From positions 708,023-772,022 of the forward strand of contig JBMORU010000001.1 in the NCBI GenBank assembly GCA_049322215.1: a stretch of DNA of 64,000 nt. Direction: 5' to 3'. This DNA comes from Patescibacteria group bacterium. Its GTDB lineage: Bacteria > Patescibacteriota > WWE3 > UBA101185 > UBA10185. The notes beneath the pieces are model-generated. The model did no database searches. It saw only the letters and a program-made list of their open reading frames with translations, and had not been told where the DNA came from. The position numbers and the translations under genes were made by a program. Below are positions 6,980 through 32,887 of this stretch, piece by piece; within the stretch, counting starts at the first letter, position 1, and every line of letters starts with the position of its first letter.

Positions 6980-6989
6980 GGTTTGCTCC

Positions 6990-7359: not shown

Positions 7360-8388
7360 GTGAATAATGATAAGTCGAAAACAGGAGATAACATGTTAAA
7401 TCGTGGTGCATTAACCTTTCTGATTATCGTTTTGATGATCGGCTCTGCCTTGATGTTTCGCCCGGCAACTGCTAAAGAAGATGGGGATAGTTACACTTAT
7501 CTCCCGCTTGTTATTGGTGGAAGTGATGCTACTCCAGCGCCTCCCCCAGAGCCAATTGCAGTACCAAATGGTCTTGCCTTTATTGAAGGGAATAGTGTTA
7601 CAGGCTTTTTCGAAAATAACCAAATTGAAGAAGTTTCATTAGCCACCTTCAATGATGCAACAGTTTGTGCAGGCATCTTGTGGATTGCAGATAACAATGG
7701 TATTGGATATGTAACAGCCCAAGGGGTTAGTTACGTATCTAATGTTGTAACCACTGTTATAGCTTCCCACCAAAAAACAGATACTTGCTACATAACCCTT
7801 GTCGATTCAAACTTACGTCTTGTAGTTTACAGTATTTCTGACTTGACGCTTACTGAAGAATGGTCGCAAGCTTTATTGTCAAATATGAATCCGTTAATTG
7901 ATATTGAGCTTGTTGCTCTCGATGAAGTTTACGTTTCTTCGGCTTTGGGAATTAGCAAAGTGCAACCACAGATGCACCAGTTTTATTCGCCAATCGGTGA
8001 TGTGGTTGACTTTGAAGTAAGCGCAAATTATGTAGTATTTGTCAGCGATGCGGGAGTACCAGAAATTTACGTAATTTCCCGAGATCCCTGGCAAGAAGTG
8101 GGTAGAAGTGAAAATACATTTGGGTTTTTAACAAAGCTCAATGGTATTGCAGTTTCTTCCGACGAAAGCGAAATATTAGTAACTGTTTCAACCTTTACGC
8201 AACAGTTTAGTGTTGAAAGTTACGATTTTGGTTTTATGCAAATATGTGCTGAAACGTATCAAGCTGACTCGGCAACTTACTTTAACGGTAATTTCTATGT
8301 AGGAGATGAAGGGCTTTCAACGGTTCAAAACTGTCAAATTACAAACAGTTGGCCAACCACAGAAGTCATAACAAACTTCATCAAATAG
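7360..8388 (+). CDS. Secreted or membrane-anchored hypothetical protein
   Basis: N-terminal TM/signal (ALTFLIIVLMIGSALMF) then a Pro-rich segment. Confidence 0.5.
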   Translation: MNNDKSKTGDNMLNRGALTFLIIVLMIGSALMFRPATAKEDGDSYTYLPLVIGGSDATPAPPPEPIAVPNGLAFIEGNSVTGFFENNQIEEVSLATFNDATVCAGILWIADNNGIGYVTAQGVSYVSNVVTTVIASHQKTDTCYITLVDSNLRLVVYSISDLTLTEEWSQALLSNMNPLIDIELVALDEVYVSSALGISKVQPQMHQFYSPIGDVVDFEVSANYVVFVSDAGVPEIYVISRDPWQEVGRSENTFGFLTKLNGIAVSSDESEILVTVSTFTQQFSVESYDFGFMQICAETYQADSATYFNGNFYVGDEGLSTVQNCQITNSWPTTEVITNFIK

Positions 8389-15778: not shown

Positions 15779-16216
15779 TTATTCTCCTTTGCTTTTTAAT
15801 TTGCTTATTGTTTCGGCGTACTTGTGTATTACAGCTTCAAGATAGTTCTTTGCCTCTGTAATCAGTTGGATGATGCCCTCTGTCTCACCGTGTTCAGTGA
15901 AGATGTACTTAGTGTTTTTTGGTAGAAACACATTTACCAGAGCTTGGTAACTAAGGTAGTCAGGTGCTAGCCTTTTTATATCTGTGCAGAGCACAGTTCT
16001 GATGTCTGGTCTTTCCTTCAAAAAGCTCACCATTCTCTTAAACCCAGTACCTTCATGTTCATAGTAGTTATCTCCATTCACAGTGTCAGCAAATACCTCT
16101 ACTGGTTCTAGGCCTTCTCTAACACAAAAATTTATACATTCTCTTCTTTGTTTTGCGACACTATTTTTAGTACCTTTACTGTTTAAATAGATAACGCATT
16201 CTTTATTGTTGTTCAT
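15779..16216 (-). CDS. Resolvase N-terminal-domain-like protein (possibly degenerate; accessory to the recombinase)
   Basis: VIYLNSKGTKNS...Q resembles the YxRVS(T)xxQ region. Ends 4 bp upstream of the recombinase start. Confidence 0.4.
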   Translation of the reverse strand: MNNNKECVIYLNSKGTKNSVAKQRRECINFCVREGLEPVEVFADTVNGDNYYEHEGTGFKRMVSFLKERPDIRTVLCTDIKRLAPDYLSYQALVNVFLPKNTKYIFTEHGETEGIIQLITEAKNYLEAVIHKYAETISKLKSKGE

Positions 16217-18059: not shown

Positions 18060-19514
18060 ATGTTCGAACAAGCTTTTAGAAATATAGACAATGCCTTATG
18101 GAAAGACCCTGGTTGTTCTAGTGAATTAGACTATGTGGAGCAAACCTCTTGGATTTTGTTTTTGAAGTACCTAGATGATTTGGAGAAAGATAAAGCTACA
18201 GAAGCTTCTTTAGCAGGTCGTTTATTTGGGCCTATTATTTTGCCAGAATTTCAATGGGATTCATGGGCATGTCCTAAGGGAAAAGATGGGAAAATTGATT
18301 ATAACAAGGCTAGAACAGGAGATGACTTGCGAGATTTTGTTAACGACTCATTGTTTCCATATCTAAGAAAGTTTAAGGCCAATGCTGAAAGCGCAGATAC
18401 TATCGAATATAAGGTAGGTGAAATCTTCAGCGAATTAAAAAACAAAGTACAAAGTGGTTACACCTTAAGAAATGTACTGGATATTGTGGATACCATGAGT
18501 TTTAGGTCACAAGAAGAAAAGCATGAACTATCTTATCTTTATGAAGCAAAAATACAAAACATGGGCAATGCTGGTCGTAATGGCGGTGAATACTACACGC
18601 CACGACCACTAATTAAAACTATTGTTAAAGTTGTAGCTCCTAAAATAGGGGATAGAGTTTATGACGGTGCCGTTGGGTCAGCAGGATTTTTGGTAGAGGC
18701 ATACGAGTATCTTAAAAAGACAAAGGATTTAACCACTAAAGACATAGAAACTCTACAAAGAAGTACCTTCTATGGTAAAGAGAAGAAGTCTTTAGCTTAC
18801 ATCATAGGCATAATGAACATGATTTTGCACGGGATTGAAGCTCCAAACATTATCCATACAAATACTCTTTCAGAAAACATTACAGATATACAGGAAAAAG
18901 ATAGGTATGACATAGTTCTAGCAAATCCTCCTTTTGGTGGTAAGGAAAGACAAGAGGTTCAACAAAACTTTCCTATTAAAACAAGTGAAACAGCCTTTTT
19001 ATTCCTACAACACTTCATAAAGATACTTAAGGCAGGAGGTAGTGCAGGTGTTGTTATAAAAAACACCTTTTTGTCTAACACAGACAATGCATCTACAGCA
19101 CTAAGACAACATTTACTAGAAACATGCGATTTACACACAATACTAGATTTACCAAGTGGCGTATTTACAGGTGCAGGTGTAAAAACAGTCGTTTTGTTTT
19201 TTAAAAAAGGCTCTCCAACTAAAAAGGTTTGGTACTACAGATTAAATCTAGCTCGTAATTTGGGCAAAACAAATCCTTTAAATGAAAAAGACTTAGTTGA
19301 TTTCGTTGAGTTACAAAAAACAAAGGCGGATAGTGATAGCTCTTGGAGTGTTGATGTAAAAGACATAGATCAAAAGACATTTGATTTGTCGGTAAAAAAT
19401 CCAAATTCAGTTGAAGAGGTGATTTTACGCGATCCTCAAGAAATACTGGCAGAAATTAGGGAACTAGATGAGGAAAGTAGGAAAATTTTAGATAACATTG
19501 CAGGACTAATTTGA
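18060..19514 (+). CDS. hsdM: Type I restriction-modification system, N6-adenine DNA methyltransferase subunit M
   Basis: GEYYTPRPL (motif I region) and NPPFGG (motif IV). Confidence 0.85.
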   Translation: MFEQAFRNIDNALWKDPGCSSELDYVEQTSWILFLKYLDDLEKDKATEASLAGRLFGPIILPEFQWDSWACPKGKDGKIDYNKARTGDDLRDFVNDSLFPYLRKFKANAESADTIEYKVGEIFSELKNKVQSGYTLRNVLDIVDTMSFRSQEEKHELSYLYEAKIQNMGNAGRNGGEYYTPRPLIKTIVKVVAPKIGDRVYDGAVGSAGFLVEAYEYLKKTKDLTTKDIETLQRSTFYGKEKKSLAYIIGIMNMILHGIEAPNIIHTNTLSENITDIQEKDRYDIVLANPPFGGKERQEVQQNFPIKTSETAFLFLQHFIKILKAGGSAGVVIKNTFLSNTDNASTALRQHLLETCDLHTILDLPSGVFTGAGVKTVVLFFKKGSPTKKVWYYRLNLARNLGKTNPLNEKDLVDFVELQKTKADSDSSWSVDVKDIDQKTFDLSVKNPNSVEEVILRDPQEILAEIRELDEESRKILDNIAGLI

Positions 19515-20717
19515 ATGTCATTAGGTAATTGGACATCACATAAGTTAAAAGATTTGTGCTATAAAATTACTGATGGTAGCCATAACCCACCAAAAGGTGT
19601 ACCTTCAAGTCCTTATTTAATGCTAAGTTCCAAGAATGTTAATAACGATCTGCTAACTTTTGATAAGCCTAGGTACTTAGACGAAAAGAATTATATTGCA
19701 GAGAATAAACGTACACAGGTGCAGGAAGGAGACGTGCTTCTGACTATTGTAGGGACTATTGGTAGAGCTGCAGTTATTTCTAAAGGAGTAGAAAATTTAA
19801 CATTCCAACGTAGTGTTGCAGTACTAAAGCCTAGAAAGCAACTTGTAAGCTCTAGGTTTTTAATGTATTTGTTGCAGTTTAATTTTGAGTTGTTAAATAA
19901 AAACGCCAGGGGGGTTGCTCAAAAGGGTATTTACTTAAGACAACTGAATGATCTATCAGTTTATATACCAGATATTCCCACTCAAGATCATATAGTTAGT
20001 GTACTTGATGATGCATTTGTCGATTTAGAAAAGGTGTCCTTCAAATTAGTGGAAAACAGCAAAAATGCAGAGGAACTGTTTTTCTCGCATCTCAATCAAG
20101 CTTTTACTGCACCACTTGATGATAATTGGGTTAGGACACCACTTAGCGCCCATGTAAGGTTCATAGATTACAGAGGAAGGACCCCGAAAAAAACTGAATC
20201 TGGGTTGAAGTTAATTACAGCAAAAAATGTGAAAATGGGCTATTTGCAAAATGCGCCTGAGGAATTTGTTGACGAAAATATCTACAGTTCTTGGATGGTC
20301 CGTGGCATTCCATTAATGGGGGATATTCTTTTTTCCACTGAAGCTCCGATGGGAAATGTTGCTACACTCCATACAAATGAAAAGGTGGTTTTTGCTCAGA
20401 GAATTATCATACTTCAACCTGACAGAAGCATTATAAACCCTGAATTTCTCAAATTTATGCTCATGTCATCTTATTTTCAGAATCTATTGTCAGCTAATGG
20501 TACTGGCGCAACTGTCAAAGGTATTAAATCCAGTATTTTAAAAAGGCTTCCAATAGTATTTCCCAAATCTTTAGGAGAACAGAAAAATCTAGCAGAAAAG
20601 TTCACTCGTTTATCTAGCCAATGCGATGTGCTTAAGGATTCATATAACCACAAGAAAACTATTGTGGAGGAACTAAAAAAATCAATCCTAAACAAAGCCT
20701 TTAGCGGTGAGCTATAA
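19515..20717 (+). CDS. hsdS: Type I restriction-modification system specificity subunit S (two target-recognition domains)
   Basis: Start abuts the hsdM stop. Duplicated TRD architecture with conserved spacer repeats. Confidence 0.75.
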   Translation: MSLGNWTSHKLKDLCYKITDGSHNPPKGVPSSPYLMLSSKNVNNDLLTFDKPRYLDEKNYIAENKRTQVQEGDVLLTIVGTIGRAAVISKGVENLTFQRSVAVLKPRKQLVSSRFLMYLLQFNFELLNKNARGVAQKGIYLRQLNDLSVYIPDIPTQDHIVSVLDDAFVDLEKVSFKLVENSKNAEELFFSHLNQAFTAPLDDNWVRTPLSAHVRFIDYRGRTPKKTESGLKLITAKNVKMGYLQNAPEEFVDENIYSSWMVRGIPLMGDILFSTEAPMGNVATLHTNEKVVFAQRIIILQPDRSIINPEFLKFMLMSSYFQNLLSANGTGATVKGIKSSILKRLPIVFPKSLGEQKNLAEKFTRLSSQCDVLKDSYNHKKTIVEELKKSILNKAFSGEL

Positions 20718-20742
20718 TAAATTTAATTAATTTTTAATATTT

Positions 20743-23061
20743 ATGAACGAAGCAGAAACAAGAGCAGAATACATTGATCCTATGCTAACTAATGCAGGTT
20801 GGGGAGTTGTTGACGGCTCTAAAGTGCTTCGAGAACATCATTTAACAGCAGGAAGAATCCAAGTAGGCGGTGTCAGAGGTAAAAAAGACATTGCTGACTA
20901 TGTTTTAGTATATAAAAACCAAAAACTAGCCATTGTAGAAGCCAAAAAGTTTGATTCTTTACCTACAGAAGGTGTTGCACAAGCCAAGCTTTATGCTGAG
21001 AAGCTTCAACTTTCTTATACATATTCAACCAATGGTCAAAAAGTATATGAGATATGCATGGATACAGGTAAAGAAGACTATATCGATGCTTTTCCTACTC
21101 CTGACGAGCTTTGGAGTAGAGTACATACGGAGCAAAATACATGGAAAGATAAGTTTTCAGCTATACCATTCGAAGATTTTGGTGGTACAAAGCAACCTAG
21201 ATATTATCAGGAAAATGCAACCAACAACGCACTAAATGCCATAGCTGATGACAAAGACCGTATATTGCTAACTTTAGCTACAGGCGTAGGTAAAACATAT
21301 CTTGCATTCCAGATTGCTTGGAAATTATTTCATGCTAGATGGACATTACAAAAAGATGGAGCAAGAAGACCTCGTATACTCTTTCTAGCTGATAGAAATA
21401 TATTAGCCGATCAAGCATTTAACTCCTTCTCGGCTTTTCCAGAAGACGCACTAATAAGAATTAATCCGCTAGATATAAGAAAAAAAGGTGCTGTCCCTAA
21501 AAATGGAAGTATATTCTTTACTATTTTTCAAACCTTTATGAGTGGGCAAGACAATACACCTTACTATGGCGACTATCCTCCTGATTTCTTTGATTTAATA
21601 ATAATTGATGAATGCCATCGTGGTGGTGCTAATGACGAATCTAACTGGCGTGGGATTATGGAATACTTTTCGCCTGCGGTTCAACTAGGTTTAACAGCTA
21701 CACCTAAAAGAAAAGATAACGTGGATACCTATCGTTATTTTGGTGAGCCTGTGTACACATATTCACTTAAGGAAGGTATTAATGACGGATTTTTGACACC
21801 ATTTAAGGTTAAGCGGATTAGAACAACACTAGATGAATATATCTATACCTCTGATGACAAAGTTGTTGAAGGTGAAGTAGAGCAAGGAAAGGTCTACACA
21901 GAACTAGATTTTAACCGAACTATAGAAATTGAAGAACGTGAACGTACCAGAGTAAGAATATTCATGGATGAAATCAACCAAAACGAAAAGACATTGGTGT
22001 TTTGTGCAACTCAAGGGCATGCCTTGTTAGTAAGAGACTTAATCAATCAACTAAAAGAAAGCAAAGATCCTAACTATTGTGTGCGAGTTACTGCTAATGA
22101 TGGGTTTTTAGGTGAACAATATCTAAGGGAATTTCAAGACAACGAAAAAACTATACCTACAATACTTACAACCTCACAAAAACTATCAACTGGTGTTGAT
22201 GCTCGCAATGTTAGAAATATTGTCCTTATGCGTCCTATAAATACAATGGTTGAATTTAAACAAATTGTAGGTAGGGGAACTAGATTATTTGACGGCAAGG
22301 AGTATTTTACAATTTATGACTTTGTTGACGCTTATAAGATGTTTTTAGATGACGAATGGGATGGCGAGCCTGTTGATGAAACTACAATCGATGAAGGTGG
22401 TGGCAGAGAAAAACCAAAAGGTGGTAGAAAAGGTCCAATAGACCCGCCTCCAACACCTCCAGAGCCTGGTCCAGAACCAGTTAAAAGATTAAAAATAAAA
22501 CTAGCCGATGGTAAAGAGCGAGAAATACAGCACATGGTATCAACGTCATTTTGGAGTCCAGATGGCAGGCCTATTTCTGCAGAAGAATTTTTAAAGGAAA
22601 TGTTTGGCAAGCTACCTGAGTTTTTCCAAAGCGAGGAAGAACTACGCTCAATTTGGGCAAATCCAACCACGAGAGCACAATTTTTAGACAAGCTAGAGGA
22701 GCAAGGTTACGGAAAAGCAGAACTAGAGAACCTTAAAAAGGTAGTAAATGCCGAAAATAGCGACTTATTTGATGTTTTGTCTTATGTCTCTTATGCTATT
22801 ACTCCAATCACTAGAGTTGAACGAGTAGCTAAAACCACACCTTTAATGCTGTCAGGTTTAAACGAAAGACACATTGAGTTTTTAGAGTTTGTGTTATCCA
22901 AATATGTTGAAATTGGGGACGAAGAATTGGAAGAAAAGAAGTTGCCAATACTATTAAATTTGAAGTACCAAGCTATTGCAGACGCTGAAAAACTACTAGG
23001 TGGTGTGGAAAAGATTAGAGACACATTTTTTAACTTCCAAAAAGCTTTGTATTCTGCATAA
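20743..23061 (+). CDS. hsdR: Type I restriction enzyme R subunit (short, 772 aa)
   Basis: N-terminus MNEAETRAEYIDPML, Walker A TGVGKT, DECH box (IIDECHRG), helicase C-terminal QIVGRGTR. Confidence 0.8.
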   Translation: MNEAETRAEYIDPMLTNAGWGVVDGSKVLREHHLTAGRIQVGGVRGKKDIADYVLVYKNQKLAIVEAKKFDSLPTEGVAQAKLYAEKLQLSYTYSTNGQKVYEICMDTGKEDYIDAFPTPDELWSRVHTEQNTWKDKFSAIPFEDFGGTKQPRYYQENATNNALNAIADDKDRILLTLATGVGKTYLAFQIAWKLFHARWTLQKDGARRPRILFLADRNILADQAFNSFSAFPEDALIRINPLDIRKKGAVPKNGSIFFTIFQTFMSGQDNTPYYGDYPPDFFDLIIIDECHRGGANDESNWRGIMEYFSPAVQLGLTATPKRKDNVDTYRYFGEPVYTYSLKEGINDGFLTPFKVKRIRTTLDEYIYTSDDKVVEGEVEQGKVYTELDFNRTIEIEERERTRVRIFMDEINQNEKTLVFCATQGHALLVRDLINQLKESKDPNYCVRVTANDGFLGEQYLREFQDNEKTIPTILTTSQKLSTGVDARNVRNIVLMRPINTMVEFKQIVGRGTRLFDGKEYFTIYDFVDAYKMFLDDEWDGEPVDETTIDEGGGREKPKGGRKGPIDPPPTPPEPGPEPVKRLKIKLADGKEREIQHMVSTSFWSPDGRPISAEEFLKEMFGKLPEFFQSEEELRSIWANPTTRAQFLDKLEEQGYGKAELENLKKVVNAENSDLFDVLSYVSYAITPITRVERVAKTTPLMLSGLNERHIEFLEFVLSKYVEIGDEELEEKKLPILLNLKYQAIADAEKLLGGVEKIRDTFFNFQKALYSA

Positions 23062-24190: not shown

Positions 24191-24484
24191 TTATTCGTCA
24201 ATAGGAAATAAAGAAAGAGAAGTAAATCTTTTTGAAGCTTTCATTATAGGTTCCAGCTCCTCACACAGAGTGTTAAAGTCCTGACTTGTTTTTTCTAATG
24301 ATTTATAGAAGCAGTTTATACAATATCTGAAATTTCCCATACCCCTACAGCGTTTAATATCTACAGCGTAATTTCCTGCAAGCAGTTGCTCATTGCATAT
24401 TTTACATTTGGATACTTTTTTGACTTTAACCAACTTTGGTTTTCCCAGATTACTGCTGATCAAAGAGGGTGGTGTTTTGGACAT
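24191..24484 (-). CDS. Small zinc-ribbon protein (two CxxC pairs)
   Basis: CKIC...CRG...CINC pattern. Its start overlaps the 3' end of the helicase gene by 35 nt. Confidence 0.45.
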   Translation of the reverse strand: MSKTPPSLISSNLGKPKLVKVKKVSKCKICNEQLLAGNYAVDIKRCRGMGNFRYCINCFYKSLEKTSQDFNTLCEELEPIMKASKRFTSLSLFPIDE

Positions 24485-26528
24485 CTTTCTTTATAATCTT
24501 GCTTTGTTTTGCAAGAATCTCATCTCTTAATTTTCTACTAATCTCAGGTAGCGACCTAATGATTTCTTTAAACTCTGTTATTGACCACTGGTTACGCTCT
24601 TTGTTGCCAAGACTATATTTTATCTTCTGATTTAGCAAAATTTTTAGTGCCACTAAATTATTTGAAGCATTTGGTAGCTGGTAGCCATATTTAAAAGGAA
24701 TCTCGATTCCGGTAACTTCTAACTTGCATATATTTAGTATGGCTTTCACATTTCTCGATACGTCTGCGTCTAGTCGTGCCCTTAATCCCTGCCATTCCTT
24801 TTGAGGTTGTACTACTATTTTAGGCATTGCCCTCACAGTGTCCATTCCCTTATGACGGCTTTCTAAAGTTTTTTCAATTAATTCCTCTGTAATATCTACT
24901 CCTAAGTTAGCGTAGAATGATCTGATTTCTTTTTTGAGTAATTCCTCATCATCAAGAAAATCTTCAGTAAATAGTTGATCCACTATTTCCTTGTTTACAA
25001 CCACCCTTTCTTCCATTCTTTGAATTGTCCTACCTTCTTTTATATCTTCTCGTGGAATGCTAGGTTCCGGACTTGGTTCTCCCCCCAGGACACTTGCCCA
25101 AAATTCTTCGTCGTCGCTATCAAATGCTCTAAACTCTTCGAATCTGTTATCAAGATTCATGCCTATATGGGTCACTATATACCCGTAGTTATCTGGGTGC
25201 CCGGGAGAATTCTGTACTACTACACGTAGTATTCTGCCTACGAATTGTATGTATGGGGATAAAGATCTAAATGGGTTGAAGATTGCTGCTACACTTAGCT
25301 TTGGATGATCAAAACCTTCTCCAAGCATTTGTACTTGCACAATGCAATCCAAAAGCCCTGCTTTAAGCTTTCTTTTTACCTCCTCCTGTTTTCCTGGATC
25401 CATTTTGGAATGTATTACCTCAGTTGTGTATCCGCGTTCATTGTACAAACTGCATATTTTTTCTGCATGTGAAATTGACATAGCTACTGCTATTATTTGG
25501 TGTTGTGTGCCTGTTAGTCTTAGCTCCTCTAGTTTTCCCAGGCTGTTGTCAACAATACTTATGTTGCAGGCTTCTGAGGTAGCTATCCCTCTACTAAACC
25601 AATCCTCTTCCTTCATTTTAAGAATCTCTTCTAGGGTGTATTCCTTCGTGCTTTTTTCATCCGTAAATTTCAATTCTATAGTATCAGGGGCAACATAATA
25701 TGATGCTAATCGTTTAATAAATCCTTTGGTAGTAGCACTTTTAAAAGAATATCTATAAACTAACTTACCTTCAATTTCCTGTTTATCAGATCTAAATGGT
25801 GTCGCAGTTAAGAATAGTTTTTTAGCGTTAGTAAACTTATTAAAAACCATAGTCCAGCTCTTCGCAGGGCTGTGGTGTGCCTCATCAACAATTATCATAT
25901 CGAAAAAGTCTGATTCAAACTTGTCTAACCATTTATTTGGGTTTGTTGCAAGCTGTTGCACGTTTGATACTACGAAGTGAGATTCTTGGCAAATGGAGAG
26001 GTTAGAATTCTCAAGTGTTGTTACGTAGGGACCTGATAGCATGTCCTCTTCTCTTAATACGGAAGTTTTTTTCCAAAAACACTTAGAATGATTAAGATCT
26101 AGCGTATCCCTAAGTTCGTCTCTTATTGTTAGATTAGGTGAAAGAACAAGCACCCTACCAGATGACACCCCGAATGGGACTATTGCTGCAGTTCCAGATT
26201 TTCCACATCCCACAGGCAATTGTACAATTGCTGGTGTAACTTCATTACCACTATCAAAATAATCTCTTACTGCAACATATGCTTCCATCTGTGGTTCTCT
26301 TAAGGAGTAATTGTCTTCAATGTAGGCATGTGTGCTCTTGAAAAAATCCTTTATGCCTTTGCTTCTTAATACCCACTCATCTAGTAATTCCCTGTTGAAT
26401 ACCCAACGGTTCTTAACCTTGTTTACTGGAATTTTTCCGTTTTGTGCAAGGCCATAAAGCGTAGTTTTCCCTATGCTAAGGTATTTAGAAGCTTGTTCAA
26501 GTGTCAGCCAGTTATCGTTAGTTATCAT
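24450..26528 (-). CDS. Excisionase-type HTH fused to an SF2 DEAH-box helicase (ResIII-like N-lobe plus helicase C-lobe) with an uncharacterised C-terminal domain of about 200 aa
   Basis: N-terminus LTLEQASKYLSIGKTTLYGLAQNGKIPVNKV (HTH_17-like). Walker A GCGKSG, DEAH (IVDEAHH), TAT motif III, motif VI QFVGRILR. Confidence 0.7.
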   Translation of the reverse strand: MITNDNWLTLEQASKYLSIGKTTLYGLAQNGKIPVNKVKNRWVFNRELLDEWVLRSKGIKDFFKSTHAYIEDNYSLREPQMEAYVAVRDYFDSGNEVTPAIVQLPVGCGKSGTAAIVPFGVSSGRVLVLSPNLTIRDELRDTLDLNHSKCFWKKTSVLREEDMLSGPYVTTLENSNLSICQESHFVVSNVQQLATNPNKWLDKFESDFFDMIIVDEAHHSPAKSWTMVFNKFTNAKKLFLTATPFRSDKQEIEGKLVYRYSFKSATTKGFIKRLASYYVAPDTIELKFTDEKSTKEYTLEEILKMKEEDWFSRGIATSEACNISIVDNSLGKLEELRLTGTQHQIIAVAMSISHAEKICSLYNERGYTTEVIHSKMDPGKQEEVKRKLKAGLLDCIVQVQMLGEGFDHPKLSVAAIFNPFRSLSPYIQFVGRILRVVVQNSPGHPDNYGYIVTHIGMNLDNRFEEFRAFDSDDEEFWASVLGGEPSPEPSIPREDIKEGRTIQRMEERVVVNKEIVDQLFTEDFLDDEELLKKEIRSFYANLGVDITEELIEKTLESRHKGMDTVRAMPKIVVQPQKEWQGLRARLDADVSRNVKAILNICKLEVTGIEIPFKYGYQLPNASNNLVALKILLNQKIKYSLGNKERNQWSITEFKEIIRSLPEISRKLRDEILAKQSKIIKKDVQNTTLFDQQ

Positions 26529-26622
26529 ATGCTATCAAATGATAACACAGATCATTTGTATGTCAACGACTCTGGGAATTTCTATGTGTAATCTATAAAA
26601 CTGGTCTTTGCTATTTTATTCT

Positions 26623-26631
26623 TGATATAAT
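26623..26631 (+). promoter_or_regulatory. Extended -10 promoter element (TGaTATAAT) upstream of the small basic ORF
   Basis: TTGATATAATG, about 100 nt upstream of ATG 26736. Confidence 0.3.
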
Positions 26632-26735
26632 GTATGTGCTTTGGGTAGTCCTTTGCTCTGAGCTGAAATACGAGGTGCTTGAGGAGAACTCTCCTGGTCT
26701 CGCCTCTAGTATTTTGGCGAGAAAGGAGCAAAAAA

Positions 26736-26909
26736 ATGTCTAACTCTCAAATTGCCTACACGGGCAAACCGGCACCTAGGTCTGGACAGTACCGAGCTTC
26801 TGGTAGCAACGTAGAGATTACGTTGGTCAAGGGCAAACGTACACCCCCAAACAACATGGGTGTAAGACAAAAGTTCTTTTTAGTTGACAAGACTAAACAC
26901 AAGAACTAA
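26736..26909 (+). CDS. Small basic protein (57 aa) with a strong RBS
   Basis: GAAAGGAGCAAAAAA then ATG. Lys/Arg-rich. Confidence 0.3.
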   Translation: MSNSQIAYTGKPAPRSGQYRASGSNVEITLVKGKRTPPNNMGVRQKFFLVDKTKHKN

Positions 26910-27179
26910 TGTGAGGCAGGACTACCCAGGCATGTATTCTTAAGTTAACTTAGCCAAATCAAAACCACCCGTGTAAAACTCCCCATAAATGAAATCCTCC
27001 ACATACTGCCTCACTTTTGTAGCATATGTTGAAGGACCCCAATAAAAACACCCTTTAACAGCAACATTTCTAGCTATACCCAAATGTTAAATTGAACCCC
27101 AGTTAACCCTGTAGTATACTAGCCCCAAGTTATATTCCCGTTAATACTGGTCATCTGACACAAAGGAGAAAGCTATCTA

Positions 27180-27593
27180 ATGTCCAAAGCCTTAATTATG
27201 CTTAAGCCTGATGGTGTAGGACTGCATTTAGACGTTGAACTTGAGGATTTGTTACGAGTCTCAGGTTTGCGTGTTGTTGAAAGAAAAAAGGTCAGATTGA
27301 CTGAACAAACAATTCGTAAGCTGTATGGTAAGTACCAGGAGAGGTGGTTCTTCGATGAATTGATCGTGTACTTAACCTCAGACAATTGTCTTTTATACAT
27401 CTGCGAAGGTAAAGATGCATTTAGGAAGGTTAAAGAAATCTGTGGTAACAGCTACGATGGAACTGGTATACGAGGTAAGTACTCTTCTCATAGGTTAGAA
27501 GACCCAAGTGGTAGAGTAGTGTTGATGAAAAACGTTGTGCATGTGTCTGATAGTTGTGATTTTAATAGGGAATATGAATTACTTAAAGCGTAG
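27180..27593 (+). CDS. ndk: Nucleoside diphosphate kinase-like protein (divergent)
   Basis: RBS AAAGGAG. IMLKPDGV, a Kpn-loop-like GTGIRGKY and the active-site region NVVHVSDS (corresponding to NxxHGSD). Confidence 0.6.
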   Translation: MSKALIMLKPDGVGLHLDVELEDLLRVSGLRVVERKKVRLTEQTIRKLYGKYQERWFFDELIVYLTSDNCLLYICEGKDAFRKVKEICGNSYDGTGIRGKYSSHRLEDPSGRVVLMKNVVHVSDSCDFNREYELLKA

Positions 27594-27637
27594 GTATTTT
27601 TTGATACCATAGTAAAATACTTACGCTTTTTTTTGTT
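27589..27637 (+). terminator. Hairpin plus T8 overlapping the ndk stop and abutting the next start codon (attenuator or partial terminator)
   Basis: GCGTAGGTATTTT-loop-AAATACTTACGC then TTTTTTTT, followed directly by ATG 27638. Confidence 0.5.
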
Positions 27638-28378
27638 ATGAATAGTAATGAAATTATAAACTTATATTCAAAAACTTTAAGAAAGGAATTACCCAATAAA
27701 GTAGAATCCACTTTTTTGTTCGGTATGTACCAGATGTTGTACAGAATGTTTGATGCATATAATACTGACTTCCATGTATTGCATGCCTCCAGTTCTGTGA
27801 GTGAATCTGGAAAAGTAGTGCTTTTTGGTGATGATGGGATTTTTTCTGTAGGAAAAACATTCTGTTCTTTACTTTTGGCTGCACAGTCGGGTATTTATGT
27901 TTCTGATGAGTATTGCTTACTCGATAAGTATACGTTAGGTATCTACGGTAACGGGGATATTCCACTAAACCTAAAAGGGGATACGGCAAGCTATATAATG
28001 GAAAGTTTTCAACTTAAGCTAAAGGACTCCAAAGTCATTTATGCTAACGATTACTTTAAAATCGTACCTAGCTCCAAGATAAATTATGTTGTAATACCCT
28101 ATATGTGTTCGGAAAAATCTAGTATTGAGCCTGTCTCAGACACGGATCAGAAAGCATCCATTGCTAAAGGTATAGTGTATGGACACAATGTTAAATTTTT
28201 ACAACCTGAATTTGATAGAGTTTCCATCTTACGTAATGAGCAAGGTAGCCTTGAATCCAATATGAGTACTCTTTTGAATGCTTACCCAGTACCAAATTTT
28301 CCTTTTGATATTGTGAGAATGTATGTGAAAAACCCAGATGATATTTTGCCCATGATTAAGGAAATTGAACATGTCTGA
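27638..28378 (+). CDS. HPr-kinase-like P-loop kinase domain protein
   Basis: VLHASSSVSESGKVVLFGDDGIFSVGKTFCSLLLAAQSGIYVSDEYCLLD follows the HprK C-terminal layout, including Walker A GIFSVGKT. Confidence 0.45.
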   Translation: MNSNEIINLYSKTLRKELPNKVESTFLFGMYQMLYRMFDAYNTDFHVLHASSSVSESGKVVLFGDDGIFSVGKTFCSLLLAAQSGIYVSDEYCLLDKYTLGIYGNGDIPLNLKGDTASYIMESFQLKLKDSKVIYANDYFKIVPSSKINYVVIPYMCSEKSSIEPVSDTDQKASIAKGIVYGHNVKFLQPEFDRVSILRNEQGSLESNMSTLLNAYPVPNFPFDIVRMYVKNPDDILPMIKEIEHV

Positions 28379-29105
28379 GCAAAACCCAAAACTATGTGTA
28401 GCTGAGTTCATAAATAGTATTAAAGGTATAGAGGATTCAAAAGTTCTAGGTGTAATTAGAACTGGGGAACTTGACTACAGTGATTTTGTACCAAACTGGA
28501 GTGATATAGACCTCTTTGTTATTTTGGAGGAAATGAATATAACTGCAGTGAAAACCATAACAAGGCTTACAAAAAGTCTTTCCAAAAAACACAACATTCA
28601 TATTGGCTTAGCTCTTATGACCTCGCAGGAGTACTATTCCACAACACCAGAAGTTAACTGCTTAAAGAATTTGTTAATGAAAAAAGGTTTTTCCTATGGG
28701 AGAAATAATATCGAGTGGGGTAATCTAACCCCCTGTGAATTAAATTTACCGAATAAACTTCCTAGTATGATAAGAGAAGTTAATTACTTCAAGGCATATA
28801 TGCGTAATGGACTTAGAGACCTAAACGAAGATGAGCTATTGCGCCGTATTATTAAGTGTGCTCACTATATTTTACTTTGTTCTCTTTTAGCGGAATATCC
28901 ATTACTGGTAGACACAAAACCAAATAAGGCATTATCTGAGGAACTATTCCATGACTTTGGGTTGGGGTTTTCCATTTACGATCATATTTCAGCAATTAAA
29001 AAAGAATTTGATACAATCGTTGATGCGGAATCGGAAGCGTATGTAATTGCCGATTATCTTGAAAAATTTTTAGTGTATTTTTATAGAAGAACAACAAATG
29101 TATAA
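28365..29105 (+). CDS. Pol-beta-superfamily nucleotidyltransferase
   Basis: GVIRTGELDYSDFVPNWSDIDLFV is the G[GS]x(9-13)DxD signature. Overlaps the kinase gene by 14 nt. Confidence 0.55.
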   Translation: MNMSEQNPKLCVAEFINSIKGIEDSKVLGVIRTGELDYSDFVPNWSDIDLFVILEEMNITAVKTITRLTKSLSKKHNIHIGLALMTSQEYYSTTPEVNCLKNLLMKKGFSYGRNNIEWGNLTPCELNLPNKLPSMIREVNYFKAYMRNGLRDLNEDELLRRIIKCAHYILLCSLLAEYPLLVDTKPNKALSEELFHDFGLGFSIYDHISAIKKEFDTIVDAESEAYVIADYLEKFLVYFYRRTTNV

Positions 29106-29835
29106 ACAAGCGGGTTTTTATGTAAGAAAAACTTTGGTTGAGGACATAGTATTTAATGTTTTTTTTACCGATCTGTCTAAACCGTGGATTATCTTTTTAC
29201 CTGGTCTTCCTCAATATATACACAAACACTGGTACCTTAAGGACTTGATTCAGGATTATTGTGTGCTTAATCCCTATTATCCAGGTTCTTTCCATTCGTT
29301 TGGGGAGTTCACGCCCACATCTTTTACTAAAACAGTAGACACAAGCATAACTTTGCTCGAAACTAAAGAATTTTTTGATCATTTTGAACAAAAAGCTTTT
29401 GAACATACAGGAGTTATTTCAGGGATTTGGGGATTGAGTTTTGGCGCTAATTTAATTGTAGAGTACCTGTCACGTACTAGTAATGTTGATATACCTGTTG
29501 TGATAGTCAGTCCCATGCTAAAAATGTCCATGCCTGTACTTAATGATTACTGGAAACAAAAAACTAGATTTCTAGCATCCCCCGTTTACCAAAACATATT
29601 TCGTGGATTAAATGATGCTGCATTTCGTGACTGGCTAAATTCTACTGAAGCCTTAGAGATTCCACCTAAAACTAGAGGTGTATTGTTATACGGGAAAAAC
29701 GACCGTTATATGGATGCAGACTTTTTAAGTGCCAAATTTTCTGCACTTGATATACATATTTTAGAAGAATATGCCCATGAGGTTGATAATATCATAGGCT
29801 TTTATGTAAAAAGTAACTATGCTATAAATAACTAA
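29098..29835 (+). CDS. Alpha/beta-fold hydrolase
   Basis: GLSFG nucleophile elbow (GxSxG). Overlaps the upstream gene by 8 nt. Confidence 0.45.
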   Translation: MYKQAGFYVRKTLVEDIVFNVFFTDLSKPWIIFLPGLPQYIHKHWYLKDLIQDYCVLNPYYPGSFHSFGEFTPTSFTKTVDTSITLLETKEFFDHFEQKAFEHTGVISGIWGLSFGANLIVEYLSRTSNVDIPVVIVSPMLKMSMPVLNDYWKQKTRFLASPVYQNIFRGLNDAAFRDWLNSTEALEIPPKTRGVLLYGKNDRYMDADFLSAKFSALDIHILEEYAHEVDNIIGFYVKSNYAINN

Positions 29836-30266
29836 TGAAAAAGCATCTTTCCGCAGGAGGTATACTCCTTAATTCAGCTAAACAAGTCTATTTACTGCAT
29901 AAAATAAGCCGTGATGAATGGGGACTACCTAAAGGAACAATTGAAGAAAATGAAGATACTTTAGATGCGGCTATTAGAGAAATTAAGGAAGAAACTGGTT
30001 ACAAAAATATTATACCTTTGGAAGATAAACCATTCGAAACTGTTAACTGGCAAATGACACACCCTAAAACAGGCGAAGAAATAGACAAAACCGTTTATTA
30101 CTTTATGTTTGAGCTTTTAGATGAGGAATTTGAACCCACACCTGAGATGGAAGCAGAAGAGCTAGAAGGAGATTGGTTTGATATTGATACCGCAGTAGAG
30201 AAAGTCACTTTTGACGATCTGCGTGAAGTATTAAAGAAAGCTAAATCTTCAGAATACTTCAACTAA
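29835..30266 (+). CDS. NUDIX hydrolase
   Basis: The Nudix box GTIEENEDTLDAAIREIKEETGY fits Gx5Ex7REUxEExGU. Its start overlaps the upstream stop. Confidence 0.75.
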   Translation: MKKHLSAGGILLNSAKQVYLLHKISRDEWGLPKGTIEENEDTLDAAIREIKEETGYKNIIPLEDKPFETVNWQMTHPKTGEEIDKTVYYFMFELLDEEFEPTPEMEAEELEGDWFDIDTAVEKVTFDDLREVLKKAKSSEYFN

Positions 30267-30380
30267 AGTATCCATTAAAATTTTTATTTCTTGTATAATT
30301 TGACTCAACTCGAACTTCATCTCCGGCCTCAACGAAGTTCGAAATAGCGCCATACTTCTATTTCTTTTATACTTCAAATA

Positions 30381-31115
30381 ATGAACTTCAAATTCTTAAT
30401 AGACGAAAAACTACTATTCTTTGTATGTTTAACCAAAGGTAACAAAACAGAAAGCTGGGTTGATTTGCAAAATGAACTTTGGGACAAATACAGGCTAGGT
30501 TATAAATTACTTCAGGGTAAAATGTTGGGTTTCTTTGTCTCATCCAAAGAGGATTCATTGTCAAAAGCAACTGCAGAAGTTGACGCCTTGTTTAAAGAAG
30601 GTTTGACCTCACATGTATTTTCTACAATATTAAAAAACACCCAAGAATATAAACAGTGGCTAGAAAACGAATGGAAACACAACAAGACCAAAGTTTTAAC
30701 TGAACTGGAGGACATCTTAAAAATACCTCTTCCAAACCAAGAACATGAAGTTTTCGTTATTTCACGTAAGAGCAACGCAGGCAGAAATATTGGAGGTAAC
30801 AAAATACTATTTGGTCATTCCGAAGATTGGAAAAACTACAGCATAGCATACTTAGTTCATGAAGCATTATATTCTGTATTTGGCAAAAGTGACTTAGAGC
30901 ATGCATTAATAGAATTAGCTACTGATAATGAATTAAGGATTCGCTTAAATGATGGGGAAAAATATTTTAAAGTTGGGGAGTTGGAAGTAGGGCATAAATA
31001 TCTACGTGAGTTAGAAAAGGAAATACTTCCGGAGTGGAGGAAACATTTGGAAGGTAAAAATTCAGTGAATGAGTTGATTAAAAAGTTGAAGTCCACACAA
31101 ATAACTCAAGCCTAA
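30381..31115 (+). CDS. Hypothetical protein
   Basis: ORF only. Confidence 0.4.
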   Translation: MNFKFLIDEKLLFFVCLTKGNKTESWVDLQNELWDKYRLGYKLLQGKMLGFFVSSKEDSLSKATAEVDALFKEGLTSHVFSTILKNTQEYKQWLENEWKHNKTKVLTELEDILKIPLPNQEHEVFVISRKSNAGRNIGGNKILFGHSEDWKNYSIAYLVHEALYSVFGKSDLEHALIELATDNELRIRLNDGEKYFKVGELEVGHKYLRELEKEILPEWRKHLEGKNSVNELIKKLKSTQITQA

Positions 31116-31221: not shown

Positions 31222-31764
31222 ATGGACTTTCTTCAATCAGGAAACCAAACCCAAATAACTCCTAAAATCCAAAAAATTTCAGATAGGTTAGAAGGTACTG
31301 CATTTAATTACATTGCCAACGTTTTGCTCTGGATTGAACAAAATATAAAAACTCAAAGAAACCACCCAGACAAAGGTAAACTTCTACGCACACGAACTGC
31401 GGATCAAATAATTTCTGACGGTTTTGCAACTGGCTGCACAGACATAGCTTTAGTGTTTATTGTGCTAACCCGAGCAAAAGGCCTACCAACAAAATATGTG
31501 GAAGCAATAAAAGAAAGTTGGTTACAAAGGGGTAGTGAAAACAGTTTAGAAGGCCATGTTTTTGCTGAGGTTGAAATAGATGACAATTGGTATCAAGTAG
31601 ATCCGGATATGTTAACTATTAAGCTTTACCGAAGTTATAAAGGTTTTCAAATATACGAAAAGGGTTTGGATTCTTGGGATTTAGGAATTGATTCATTTGA
31701 AAAACTTAAAGAGGTGTTTTTAGAGTTTAGGAGTTTACATGCGCAAAAGTATTTCAGTAGGTAA
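31222..31764 (+). CDS. Transglutaminase-like cysteine protease superfamily protein
   Basis: GCTDIA (Cys), GHVFAEV (His) and DPD (Asp) are spaced as in the transglutaminase core. Confidence 0.5.
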   Translation: MDFLQSGNQTQITPKIQKISDRLEGTAFNYIANVLLWIEQNIKTQRNHPDKGKLLRTRTADQIISDGFATGCTDIALVFIVLTRAKGLPTKYVEAIKESWLQRGSENSLEGHVFAEVEIDDNWYQVDPDMLTIKLYRSYKGFQIYEKGLDSWDLGIDSFEKLKEVFLEFRSLHAQKYFSR

Positions 31765-31781: not shown

Positions 31782-32330
31782 CTATAACTCTTTAAGAAAT
31801 TCCCCAAGTTTTTTCCACGCATCCCCCCATACCTTAACACGTTCTTCATGGCTCATTTCTGCTAATGTCTTTTTCTTCTCAGGCACATAAAAAATGTAAT
31901 CATAGTTATATCCGTCATCGCCTCTTTTTTCACTAATTATTTCTCCGTGTCCTTTAGAGCTAAATACTTCCAAAACTTTTCCATCGGTGTATCCAATCAT
32001 TCTCTGAACATAGGCTGTACAGTTAGGAATTGTATTTGCAAGCGTCATTAACCCTTCTTCCCCAATAGTTTCTAATACATACTTTGTGTAGACACCTGGG
32101 AATCCTCCAAGACTCTCAATAAACAAACCAGAATCCATAGCTATTAAAGGTTTTTGTATTATTTCGTAGCACTTTTTAACTTTGTCTTTAATTACTTCTT
32201 CCGGAGAATTTGATTGTATTTCTGGCACTTCTACTTCTTGTCCTATTACATTTATGCCATATTTGTTTAAAACACTCTCTGCTGATTTTATTTTATGTTT
32301 GTTAGTTGTAGTGAAAATTATTTCTTTCAT
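31782..32330 (-). CDS. Non-canonical purine NTP pyrophosphatase (Ham1/RdgB/ITPase family)
   Basis: FTTTNKHKIKSAE corresponds to the FATGNxGKxxE N-terminal motif. Length 182 aa. Confidence 0.65.
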   Translation of the reverse strand: MKEIIFTTTNKHKIKSAESVLNKYGINVIGQEVEVPEIQSNSPEEVIKDKVKKCYEIIQKPLIAMDSGLFIESLGGFPGVYTKYVLETIGEEGLMTLANTIPNCTAYVQRMIGYTDGKVLEVFSSKGHGEIISEKRGDDGYNYDYIFYVPEKKKTLAEMSHEERVKVWGDAWKKLGEFLKEL

Positions 32331-32404: not shown

Positions 32405-32887
32405 ATGAAAAATGATTTAGTAAACTTAGCAAAAGAAACAATTTCAAACAACCAATACATGACCATTGCGACATCGAATGAAAACGGTAATGCCTGGGCA
32501 TCACCAGTAGCGTATGTGTTTGATTATAAATACAATTTTTATTGGGTTTCTGTTCCAGAATCCAAACATCAACAAAATATAAATTATAATCCAAACGTAT
32601 CTATTGCTATTTTTGATTCACATCAACTTTGGGGCGAAGGTGTTGGTGTGCAAATAGAAGCAACAGTTGAGCGGGTTTCGTTAGTTGATTTACCTAAAGT
32701 TACTAAGCTATATTTCTCAAGAGAATATCCATATGGAAGTGCTACCGGCGCTTTTGGTGACGGTTTAAAAGATTTACTAAAAGGTAAAATCTATCATTTT
32801 TACAAAGCTATCCCAACAAAAGTATGGGTTCCTGACCCGAATGCAGATGTGGATGCTCGCATTGAAGTTAATCTAAGCAATAACTAA
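32405..32887 (+). CDS. Pyridoxamine-5'-phosphate-oxidase-like FMN-binding protein (general stress protein 26 type)
   Basis: N-terminal YMTIATSNENGNAWASPVAY pattern of the PNPOx-like split barrel. Confidence 0.5.
   Translation: MKNDLVNLAKETISNNQYMTIATSNENGNAWASPVAYVFDYKYNFYWVSVPESKHQQNINYNPNVSIAIFDSHQLWGEGVGVQIEATVERVSLVDLPKVTKLYFSREYPYGSATGAFGDGLKDLLKGKIYHFYKAIPTKVWVPDPNADVDARIEVNLSNN

Follow-up and report, generated by a model that had tools for sequence, protein, structure and literature searches.

A conserved Patescibacteria and phage gene module that joins an NDK-like enzyme, a predicted PEPCK/HprK-fold phosphotransferase, a predicted nucleotidyltransferase and a NUDIX hydrolase

Five genes in the window (the whole stretch of 64,000 nucleotides of Patescibacteria DNA that was analysed) form one operon, and four of their products recur together as a module: an NDK-like enzyme, a predicted P-loop phosphotransferase (A), a predicted nucleotidyltransferase (B) and a NUDIX hydrolase (D). 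We propose tentatively, giving the idea somewhat less than an even chance, that this module is a self-contained pathway making and turning over one nucleotide-linked, pyrophosphate-bridged intermediate. The first-pass annotation of this DNA had not recognised the gene combination, and a search of the literature and of PADLOC indeed returned no described system or paper with it.

Results

Organization of the operon

The open reading frame list places five co-oriented genes, all on the + strand, at positions 27180-30266 of the window. The genes and the signals associated with them are as follows.

27092..27120, + strand: candidate sigma-70-like promoter TTGAAC-17-TATACT upstream of ndk (9/12 matches in a consensus scan, a weak pattern match only)
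27163..27168, + strand: Shine-Dalgarno sequence AAGGAG, 11 nt 5' of the ndk ATG, read off the sequence
27180-27593, + strand: ndk-like gene, 137 aa
27585..27634, + strand: intrinsic-terminator-like hairpin followed by U8, with a 16-bp stem and a 13-nt loop
27638-28378, + strand: gene A, 246 aa
28365-29105, + strand: gene B, 246 aa from a TTG start; the alternative ATG at 28371 (244 aa) is NCBI's start
29098-29835, + strand: gene C, 245 aa
29835-30266, + strand: gene D (NUDIX), 143 aa

Genes A and B overlap by 14 nt with the TTG start of B and by 8 nt with its ATG start, B and C overlap by 8 nt, and C and D by 1 nt, in agreement with the co-oriented block and the overlaps of 14, 8 and 1 nt described previously. 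Together with the 3 nt that separate the U8 tail from the ATG of A, these junctions make the five genes one operon.

The hairpin had been reported as lying over the ndk stop close to the next ATG, and both its position and its folding confirmed this. The 5' arm (27585-27600) contains the ndk stop codon TAG (27591-27593), the 3' arm occupies 27614-27629, and the T8 run at 27627-27634 ends 3 nt ahead of the gene A ATG at 27638. The predicted free energy is -18.1 kcal/mol (z = -4.3), and none of 200 shuffled sequences folded equally well. A consensus terminator scan overlooked this structure because its loop limit is 8 nt. With the hairpin and U8 placed on the ndk stop, transcription of genes A to D would probably require that a ribosome translates ndk all the way. 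Relatives lack the hairpin, their ndk and A frames sharing 17 nt, and this proposed control is lineage-specific.

The NDK-like protein and the NUDIX hydrolase belong to known families

The product of the first gene matches Pfam NDK at 1.5e-18 (67.4 bits against a gathering score of 27), which confirms its description as a divergent NDK. Its best PDB match is the NDK 3vvt (6.9e-13) and the catalytic NxxH(V)SD motif is present as N-V-V-H-V-S-D, together with KPD. The 70 bits that it scores on the NCBIfam equivalog NF001908, with a cut-off of 155, do not place it among housekeeping Ndk orthologues. Alignment with other NDKs of the module revealed an insertion of ~10 aa ahead of the active-site His, a residue retained in all six module NDKs aligned. 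The enzyme is an integral and conserved member of the module, although it could simply be the housekeeping ndk of a 1.1-Mb genome that is seen here through the window only.

Gene D had been assigned to the NUDIX hydrolases and matches Pfam NUDIX at 4.4e-19, with a canonical Nudix box (Gx5Ex7REUxEExGU) that reads G-TIEEN-E-DTLDAAI-RE-I-K-EE-T-G-Y. The best PDB match, over the full length, is the Aquifex Ap4A hydrolase 3i7u (6.6e-12), followed by MutT1, other Ap4A hydrolases, Dcp2 and Ndx1. By sequence, D is therefore classed as an Ap4A-hydrolase/MutT1/Dcp2-like NUDIX hydrolase, closest to the Ap4A hydrolases and, more broadly, to enzymes cleaving N-p(n)-N or N-pp-X bonds. It has the W-x-L-P-K-G context in common with Aquifex 3i7u, MutT1, NUDT2, Dcp2 and Ndx1; unlike those enzymes, D and its kin share an operon with A, B and NDK or form one protein with A, B or a GT2 glycosyltransferase.

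Gene A encodes a predicted third branch of the PEPCK/HprK fold

The gene A protein has no Pfam or NCBIfam match by profile search. It had been described as HPr-kinase-C-like, and the motif layout behind that description, VLHASSSV...GKVVLFGDDGIFSVGKT...SDEY, is present. The motifs comprise H49-A-S, a Walker A G67-x4-G72-K73-T74 and an acidic pair D90-E91; from motif order and general knowledge of HprK, we take H49, the Walker A and D90-E91 to be the counterparts of the HprK catalytic His, GxxxxGK[ST] and DD. Residues H49, D65, K73 and D90 are invariant across 56 members of the A family. A significant match to an HprK-family profile was the part that did not hold: the window protein does not match Hpr_kinase_C (PF07475), none of the family reaches its gathering score of 33.3 bits, and sub-threshold matches occur in two of the 56 members (best E 0.012). 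Searched against the PDB, the A-family profile found ATP-PEPCK alone, at E 2.2.

The protein has both the fold of the HprK C-terminal domain and that of the PEPCK nucleotide-binding domain. Alignments with HprK/P (PDB 1ko7, 1jb1, 1knx, 3tqf) extend over 121-131 residues at 15-18% identity, and those with the C-terminal nucleotide-binding domain of ATP/GTP PEPCK (1ii2, 9e32, 1j3b) over 189-195 aa at 8-11% identity. Kinship with HprK is visible at the level of the fold only, and PEPCK is about equally close. Neither relative is matched in architecture: HprK/P, which phosphorylates Ser46 of HPr, carries an N-terminal regulatory domain whereas A has only two N-terminal helices ahead of the P-loop domain, and at 246 aa A is at most half the size of PEPCK (>500 aa), whose N-terminal domain binding oxaloacetate and PEP it lacks. 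The family ranges from ~245 to 325 aa without fusions. We conclude that A is a new family of predicted PEPCK/HprK-fold P-loop phosphotransferases, a third branch of this fold.

Gene B encodes a predicted AadA-like nucleotidyltransferase

The gene B protein likewise has no Pfam or NCBIfam match; Adenyl_transf and NTP_transf_2 of Pfam are reached weakly, and by B orthologues only. The earlier assignment to Pol-beta-type nucleotidyltransferases was upheld by fold and motifs and not by a Pfam match of the window protein. The motif G-S...W-S46-D47-x-D49, with E89, provides the hG[GS]...D-x-D and third acidic residue of the Pol-beta superfamily. Among 21 sequences S46, D47 and D49 are invariant and G34, S35 and E89 near-invariant; the motifs align to SDLDFLVVV of AAD(9), and E89 to the Glu that follows the AAD(9) DxD. 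The structural model, which is poor in the C-terminal domain (pLDDT about 50-60), shows a nucleotidyltransferase domain followed by a C-terminal helical domain and resembles AadA. B is thus a predicted Pol-beta-fold nucleotidyltransferase of the AadA/ANT(3'')(9)-like type, at 12-13% identity to AadA / ANT(3'')(9) / AAD(9) (6sxj, 7uy4).

Because B in its structure is most like spectinomycin/streptomycin adenylyltransferases, and because drug modification is a classic activity of kinases and alpha/beta hydrolases, the nucleotidyltransferase, the kinase and the esterase might each serve to inactivate some foreign compound, for instance an aminocyclitol, with NDK and NUDIX being incidental. We regard this as very improbable. 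All resistance-family profiles scored below threshold, and resistance genes are not typically carried by phages or set in a housekeeping context. B itself sits in a conserved multi-enzyme operon, not in a resistance cassette or integron as AadA-type genes do, and NDK and NUDIX are not incidental, because no other partners are linked so constantly and fusions even join them to A or B.

Gene C is a clade-specific addition

Gene C had been claimed as a GxSxG hydrolase, and the catalytic residues are kept: G112-L-S114-F-G116 is followed by D202 and H227, and this triad is invariant in three orthologues at 39-45% identity. The match to alpha/beta-hydrolase profiles is weak, Abhydrolase_1 (0.0078; 16.3 bits vs 25.8) and Hydrolase_4 (0.018) both falling below the gathering threshold. 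An hhalign comparison with an Abhydrolase_11 protein gave E 0.036 with the motifs in register, and no PDB match was found by sequence. C is a probable alpha/beta-fold serine hydrolase, weakly assigned from its sequence. Among carriers of the module it is confined to this Patescibacteria clade, and it is a dispensable, clade-specific part.

The module recurs in three architectures

Synteny was read in a few sampled loci out of 74 A-family loci. These show three arrangements of NDK, A, B and NUDIX, which occur in Patescibacteria and on four viral contigs. In type I the order is NDK-A-B-C-NUDIX (the window, Ca. Dojkabacteria L001/L015, the MAG L016, and L007-L012). Type II consists of A(-)NUDIX, a mini-NTase and NDK (viral contigs L013, L017, L027 and L028, and genome contig L024). 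Type III (L014, L018, L023) comprises a SAM methyltransferase, an NDK fused to a second, AK/CoaE-like P-loop kinase domain, a NUDIX fused to GT2 or B, and then B, A and a DHQS-like cyclase. The methyltransferase, the NDK fusion and NUDIX fusions are also present in L019-L021, partial or incomplete loci where A was not detected. The gene order is retained in relatives at only 30-45% identity, so the gene set reflects more than chance, and the four-gene block proved strongly syntenic across relatives and not scattered, the point on which the first-pass annotation had proposed to check it. That annotation had overlooked the NDK as a module member, the dispensability of C and the fact that phages also carry the module.

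Domain fusions link the same enzymes. A is fused to NUDIX in P0012, P0033, P0052 and the L017 protein, NUDIX to B in six proteins, and NUDIX also to GT2 glycosyltransferases; the Nudix boxes are intact in those fusions that were read, the L017 sequence included. The NUDIX fusions to A, B and GT2 predict enzymes that act on one common intermediate.

The same gene set could be read as a route to a non-canonical nucleotide, in which NUDIX would convert NTP to NMP, A (with the AK/CoaE-like domain in type III) and NDK would raise a modified NMP to NTP, and B would join it to the end of a nucleic acid or to some other acceptor. The flow through the T4 dCTPase, dNMP kinase and NDK is an analogue. Such a route accounts for the trio of NDK, kinase and NUDIX, for the A-NUDIX fusion and for phage carriage, and it suits the SAM methyltransferase and the NDK fused to a P-loop kinase in type III as well as the presence of the template-independent nucleotidyltransferase HalB among the structural neighbours of B. 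We nevertheless consider it decidedly unlikely, since type I and type II loci contain no base-modifying enzyme, hydrolase C has no role in it, and we know of no NMP kinase with a PEPCK/HprK fold.

Genomic context

The module had been placed in a defence/cargo region. In the window its neighbours are a type I R-M system, a PbeA-like helicase and serine recombinases, but relatives carry the same operon among housekeeping genes: in Ca. Dojkabacteria and the MAG L016 it lies between rsmD/SDR and thrS-infC-rplT-pheST. Membership of a defence region was therefore not retained. A phage-host conflict module, in which a nucleotide signal or pool is made, modified or destroyed for defence in bacteria and for counter-defence or takeover in phages, seems to us unlikely. 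It would explain the window neighbours, AbiEii at L024, the large ResIII/Eco57I protein at L021, and the presence of the compact form on four viral contigs, one of which (L013) has ERF, terminase and RNA ligase next to it and another (L017) a Macro/hexapeptide protein. However, the housekeeping context just described argues against it, there is no obvious effector (nuclease, NADase or pore), and A was not found in GenBank phages, PHROGs or BFVD phage proteins. No significant match to a PADLOC model was obtained: in PADLOC-DB v2 NDK, A and C have no match at all, B reaches PDC-S09 at 3.8e-4 over 50 residues, and NUDIX reaches PDC-S07 at 2.4e-5 through the Nudix box only.

Comparison with lasso-peptide tailoring

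The first-pass annotation had pointed to kinase and nucleotidyltransferase pairs as peptide-tailoring enzymes, and this precedent is real: on a lasso peptide, the HprK-family kinase PsmK phosphorylates the C-terminal Ser and the ANT-like, NTase-fold PsmN then decorates the phosphate (PMC6993621). In pseudomycoidin the kinase phosphorylates the hydroxyl once, twice or three times before the NTase-fold enzyme adds a group to the phosphate (PMC6993621). PadeK/PsmK with PsmN (PMC6993621) place an HprK/PEPCK-fold P-loop kinase beside an aminoglycoside-NTase-like enzyme, as do A and B, and the order PsmK then PsmN follows the same logic as that proposed here for A then B.

By analogy the module could carry out reversible phospho-nucleotidylation of a protein or peptide, A phosphorylating Ser/Thr, B capping or decorating the phosphate, NUDIX and C erasing the mark and NDK supplying NTP; PsmK and PsmN act on lasso peptides as A and B would on a peptide. 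We judge this improbable. Unlike lasso clusters, the module comes without precursor, macrolactam synthetase, B1/B2 protease or exporter; it has NDK and NUDIX as obligatory partners, which are not known from lasso clusters, and it is found in Patescibacteria housekeeping regions and phages, unlike the PsmK/PsmN pair. No RiPP gene (precursor, Asn-synthetase-like cyclase or B1/B2 leader peptidase) flanks the module in the window or at any other locus examined, in line with the earlier remark that precursor and cyclase genes were not evident. A small ORF at 26737-26909 does not end in Ser, has no Pfam/NCBIfam match and is not conserved with the module, nor is a nearby transglutaminase-like gene (31222-31764); these results lend the RiPP-tailoring idea no support. 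The longer alignment of A with PEPCK, a small-molecule enzyme, than with HprK, and the GT2 and DHQS-like partners in type III, which point to small-molecule or glycan chemistry, also count against a peptide substrate.

Discussion

The pathway that we favour starts from the operon structure, the folds and families, the intact catalytic motifs, the synteny and the domain fusions described above, and its core is the NDK-like enzyme, A, B and D. Its substrate, order of steps and product are what we infer, as is every chemical step given below. A would add a phosphate to a substrate X, either at a hydroxyl or at a phosphate already there; X is most likely a small molecule, for instance a sugar, a cyclitol or a nucleoside-like compound. 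Using NTP, B would attach NMP at this site, so that the product is either nucleotidylated or a pyrophosphate-bridged N-pp-X, and NDK would recharge the NDP, probably non-adenine, to NTP locally. Cleavage of the pyrophosphate bridge by NUDIX would serve for recycling, for proofreading or as an off-switch; C, which this clade has in addition, may act as a Ser-Asp-His hydrolase that takes off or swaps an ester-linked group of the substrate or product. The GT2 fused to NUDIX and an NDP-recycling NDK fit an NDP-X-type intermediate.

Several points count against this pathway. To our knowledge, none of the known sugar-1-phosphate nucleotidylyltransferases has a Pol-beta fold. ANT-type enzymes normally nucleotidylate a free hydroxyl, and the resulting phosphodiester would not be cleaved by NUDIX. 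A kinase, a nucleotidyltransferase and a NUDIX acting on one intermediate also look partly futile. The HprK side of the fold family of A consists of protein and peptide kinases, so the target may instead be macromolecular. More speculatively, and with a chance that we put at well below even, this may be a previously unrecognised four-enzyme system that makes and degrades a new nucleotide-linked molecule, for example an N-p(n)-X compound that is cofactor-like or acts as a signal, or else a new phospho-nucleotidyl group at the end of a macromolecule. Patescibacteria and their phages would have the system in common, and the phages would use it to redirect or oppose the nucleotide chemistry of the host.

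Patescibacteria (CPR) have tiny genomes and depend largely on salvaged nucleotides. Four or five genes given over in such genomes to nucleotide phosphorylation, transfer and pyrophosphate cleavage are therefore likely to matter for physiology or phage conflict, and their presence in several CPR lineages and on phage contigs reinforces this likely importance. A and B are families without any Pfam, NCBIfam or PHROG model. Knowing what this intermediate is might bring to light a new nucleotide conjugate, or show HprK-like and ANT-like enzymes in a new role beyond RiPP tailoring and antibiotic resistance.

The operon and its internal hairpin

The NDK-like gene and genes A (P-loop phosphotransferase), B (nucleotidyltransferase), C (probable hydrolase) and D (NUDIX) form a single operon, NDK-A-B-C-NUDIX, in a window that is AT-rich (about 35% G+C).

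Features of the operon
27180-27593, plus strand: NDK-like gene, ORF of 137 aa
27585-27600 pairing with 27614-27629: hairpin found by folding, 16-bp stem and 13-nt loop, with a U8 tract at 27627-27634
27638-28378, plus strand: gene A, ORF of 246 aa
28365-29105 (TTG start) or from 28371 (ATG, the NCBI choice), plus strand: gene B, 246 or 244 aa
29098-29835, plus strand: gene C, ORF of 245 aa
29835-30266, plus strand: gene D (NUDIX), ORF of 143 aa

The tight overlaps described in the first-pass annotation are borne out by the ORF coordinates: A and B share 14 (or 8) nts, B and C 8 nts, and C and D 1 nt. The Shine-Dalgarno sequence of ndk is a strong AAGGAG, and an Rfam scan of 26300-27800 revealed neither a riboswitch nor a leader 5' of this gene. 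The hairpin proposed between ndk and A also holds, with a folding energy of -18.1 kcal/mol (z = -4.3) and none of 200 shuffles as stable; a consensus pattern scan overlooked it because the loop limit of the scan was 8 nts. The stop codon of ndk (27591-27593) lies within the 5' arm and the U8 tract ends three nts ahead of the gene A ATG. This position over the ndk stop suggests that masking of the 5' arm permits transcription of A-D: a ribosome completing ndk would cover the arm and allow read-through. Such control would be lineage-specific; the hairpin is unique to the window genome because ndk and A overlap by 17 nts in L001 and L016, two type I loci of other genomes. No T-tract terminator was found 3' of the NUDIX stop. 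A 9-bp hairpin (UCGAACUUC/GAAGUUCGA) without a U-run is present there, at 30309-30341.

Three architectures of a conserved module

The gene combination is conserved, more widely than could be known from the window, and occurs in three architectures. Type I (NDK-A-B-C-NUDIX) is found with unchanged gene order in Ca. Dojkabacteria AnMBR.bin475 (L001/L015) and in an uncultured MAG (L016), and also in a third lineage (L007-L012), there with a divergent NDK-like gene head-to-head; pairwise identity between type I proteins and those of the window is 30-45%. Gene C is present in type I loci only. Type II is a compact form made of A(-)NUDIX, a mini-NTase of ~150 aa and NDK. It was found in the genome contig L024 and in four viral contigs, L013 (which also encodes ERF, terminase and RNA ligase) and, from IMG/VR, L017, L027 and L028. 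The mini-NTase is tied to B via the B protein of L023, which scores with both HMMs, and by a weak hhalign link. Type III (L014, L018 and L023) consists of the core with extra genes. It carries B and a longer A, a SAM methyltransferase (UbiE/TehB-like), a fusion of NDK with a second P-loop domain of CoaE/AK-like type, and a sugar-phosphate cyclase that is DHQS-like (AroB-like at 1.2e-69, yet below the cut-off). The NUDIX is standalone or joined with either B or a GT2 glycosyltransferase; L018 additionally has an APH-type kinase. Loci L019-L021, which are partial or incomplete, have the methyltransferase together with the fusions of NDK and of NUDIX, and no A was detected in them. This extended module (L014, L018, L019-L021 and L023), carried by Patescibacteria-like contigs, resembles a biosynthetic cluster for small molecules or glycans. 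Ca. Magasanikbacteria is the source of one cluster member.

The fusions observed (A~NUDIX, NUDIX~B and NUDIX~GT2) are a classic sign that the enzymes cooperate. Four enzyme families are conserved, their catalytic motifs intact, and the physical fusions centre on the NUDIX.

In L017 (IMG/VR UViG_3300018080_000330), a 380-aa protein is encoded immediately 5' of the phage A~NUDIX fusion, at 6853-7995. It has a weak N-terminal Macro-domain match (1.7e-3) and a region of hexapeptide repeats of the left-handed beta-helix type, which may point to ADP-ribose or acyl-transfer chemistry next to the phage module.

Protein A defines a new family

Protein A has no match among PDB sequences or in Pfam, NCBIfam, PADLOC and PHROGs, and HMMER, run exhaustively over 1.84 billion cluster representatives, retrieved only 74 relatives. 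Residues R36, H49, D65, K73, D90, K186 and D193 are invariant in 56 family members, and the conserved set includes a canonical Walker A (G67-x4-G-K73-T) and a D-E pair. The AlphaFold model computed from the 56-member alignment is confident (pLDDT 95.4). The earlier assignment of A as an HprK-like kinase is upheld by fold and motifs and fails at the profile level: Hpr_kinase_C matches 2 of the 56 members with a best E of 0.012, which is not significant, and family profiles built from 3 or 56 sequences did not retrieve HprK from the PDB, giving chance-level matches only, plus ATP-PEPCK at E 2.2. As the profile-level link to HprK is not significant, A is a new family within the PEPCK/HprK P-loop fold and not a demonstrable HprK-family member. 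It lacks the N-terminal domain of HprK/P and likewise that of PEPCK. The sole match of A in BFVD was a giant-virus PEPCK, and the match of GenBank phages to the phage A~NUDIX fusion was limited to the NUDIX half. A locus search with a narrower A alignment returned just 2 loci from genomes and 1 from a virus.

The NCBI gene model of A (P0001, MFZ5424912.1) has 210 aa and starts at the internal Met37. Homologues conserve the 246-aa form up to its N-terminus (Q32 is invariant in the ten closely related sequences and R36 in all 56), and a Logan copy, P0102, is also 246 aa long. From this N-terminal conservation, the deposited model is N-terminally truncated.

The partner enzymes

Direct searches of Pfam, NCBIfam, PADLOC, PHROGs and PDB sequences gave almost nothing for B, which has no Pfam match, or for C. 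A single-sequence search retrieved B alone and a 5-sequence profile was required to collect its homologues. Orthologues of B weakly match NTP_transf_2, Adenyl_transf and Polbeta, and in the PDB the family profile reached an MNT-type NTase at 5.9e-6 and AadA at 7e-4. The motif S46-D47-x-D49 does not vary in the family and E89 is nearly invariant; the model has a pLDDT of 64 overall and is good in the N-terminal domain only. In motif and fold B, a putative nucleotidyltransferase, agrees with AadA-type NTases; drug inactivation as the role of the module is very improbable. An HEPN RNase role for the C-terminal domain of B was rejected, the RxxxxxH of the window protein not being kept in orthologues.

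Protein C scored below threshold with alpha/beta-hydrolase profiles (0.0078 and 0.018). Its orthologues have invariant G-L-S114-F-G, D202 and H227, and hhalign against an Abhydrolase_11 protein placed the motifs in register (E 0.036). By these sequence comparisons, C is probably a serine hydrolase.

The NDK-like protein matches Pfam NDK at 1.5e-18 and is well under the NCBIfam equivalog cut-offs (70 vs 155 bits). It keeps the phosphohistidine motif N-V-V-H-V-S-D and KPD, with an insertion of ~10 residues preceding the active-site His. Gene D encodes a canonical NUDIX (Pfam, 4.4e-19); among solved structures it is nearest to the Ap4A hydrolase of Aquifex, matched over the whole length at 6.6e-12 in a PDB sequence search, followed by MutT1, other Ap4A hydrolases, Dcp2 and Ndx1. 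A non-canonical NTP route as the function of the module is doubtful, at little more than one chance in ten.

Genomic neighbourhood

Features flanking the operon
14200-15774 and 15779-16216: serine recombinase/resolvase genes, the first overlapping tRNA-His (14212-14286)
18060-23061: complete type I R-M system (hsdM 18060-19514, hsdS 19515-20717, hsdR 20743-23061)
24450-26528: HTH_17-ResIII-Helicase_C protein with PbeA-like PADLOC scores
26737-26909, plus strand: 57-aa ORF (MSNSQIAYTGKPAPRSGQY...) with a good Shine-Dalgarno, AAAGGAG
30381-31115: orphan 244-aa ORF without family match, a perfect TATAAT (30293-30298) ahead of it
31222-31764: transglutaminase-core protein, 3' of the operon
31782-32330, minus strand: Ham1/ITPase, 3' of the operon
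32405-32887: PNPOx-like protein, 3' of the operon

The segment 14200-26528 is probably a mobile or defence island. Placing the operon in a "defence/cargo region" was fair for the neighbourhood; in Dojkabacteria and L016 the operon is placed between rsmD/SDR and thrS-infC-rplT-pheST, so being island cargo is not intrinsic to it. The adjacent genes were rejected as module members. The 57-aa ORF, without Pfam or NCBIfam match and separated from ndk by ~270 non-coding nts without Rfam match, is not conserved beside the module elsewhere, nor are the transglutaminase-like, Ham1 and PNPOx genes; the 244-aa gene has its own TATAAT and no homologue in the other fetched loci. Ham1/ITPase is another nucleotide-sanitising enzyme, unlinked to the module in other genomes. 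Further upstream, G+C peaks locally at 0.48, compared with about 0.36, in 13001-14000, inside an ORF (12792-14078) with a weak GH5 cellulase match; a second GH5-like gene (9535-10935) and an SBP_bac_5 solute-binding protein (11242-12696) are also present.

A model for the module

We tentatively propose, at somewhat less than an even chance for the full model, that the conserved enzymes all act around one nucleotide-linked intermediate. A would phosphorylate a hydroxyl or phosphate on a substrate, and B would move an NMP from an NTP onto the position phosphorylated by A. NDK would recharge the NDP, the Ap4A-hydrolase-like NUDIX would cleave the pyrophosphate bridge so formed, for recycling or proofreading or as an off-switch, and C, in the type I clade only, would take off an ester-linked group. 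An intermediate of NDP-X type would fit the GT2 fusion, the DHQS-like cyclase and NDK.

In pseudomycoidin, the lasso-peptide tailoring pair PsmK/PsmN comprises an HprK-fold kinase and then an ANT-like enzyme acting on one hydroxyl (PMC6993621). Phospho-nucleotidylation of a protein or peptide by the module is improbable; no RiPP genes are present with it. A conflict module targeting nucleotide signals would be in line with its carriage by phages, and PADLOC gave no significant system match; we give this reading an equally low probability. Literature searches on the enzyme combination found no mention of it in the library covered. We regard the module as a kinase and NTase tailoring logic assembled from known superfamilies, with a substantial, though less than even, chance of its being a categorically new nucleotide-conjugate system. 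In conclusion, the module is clearly real, conserved and also carried by phages.
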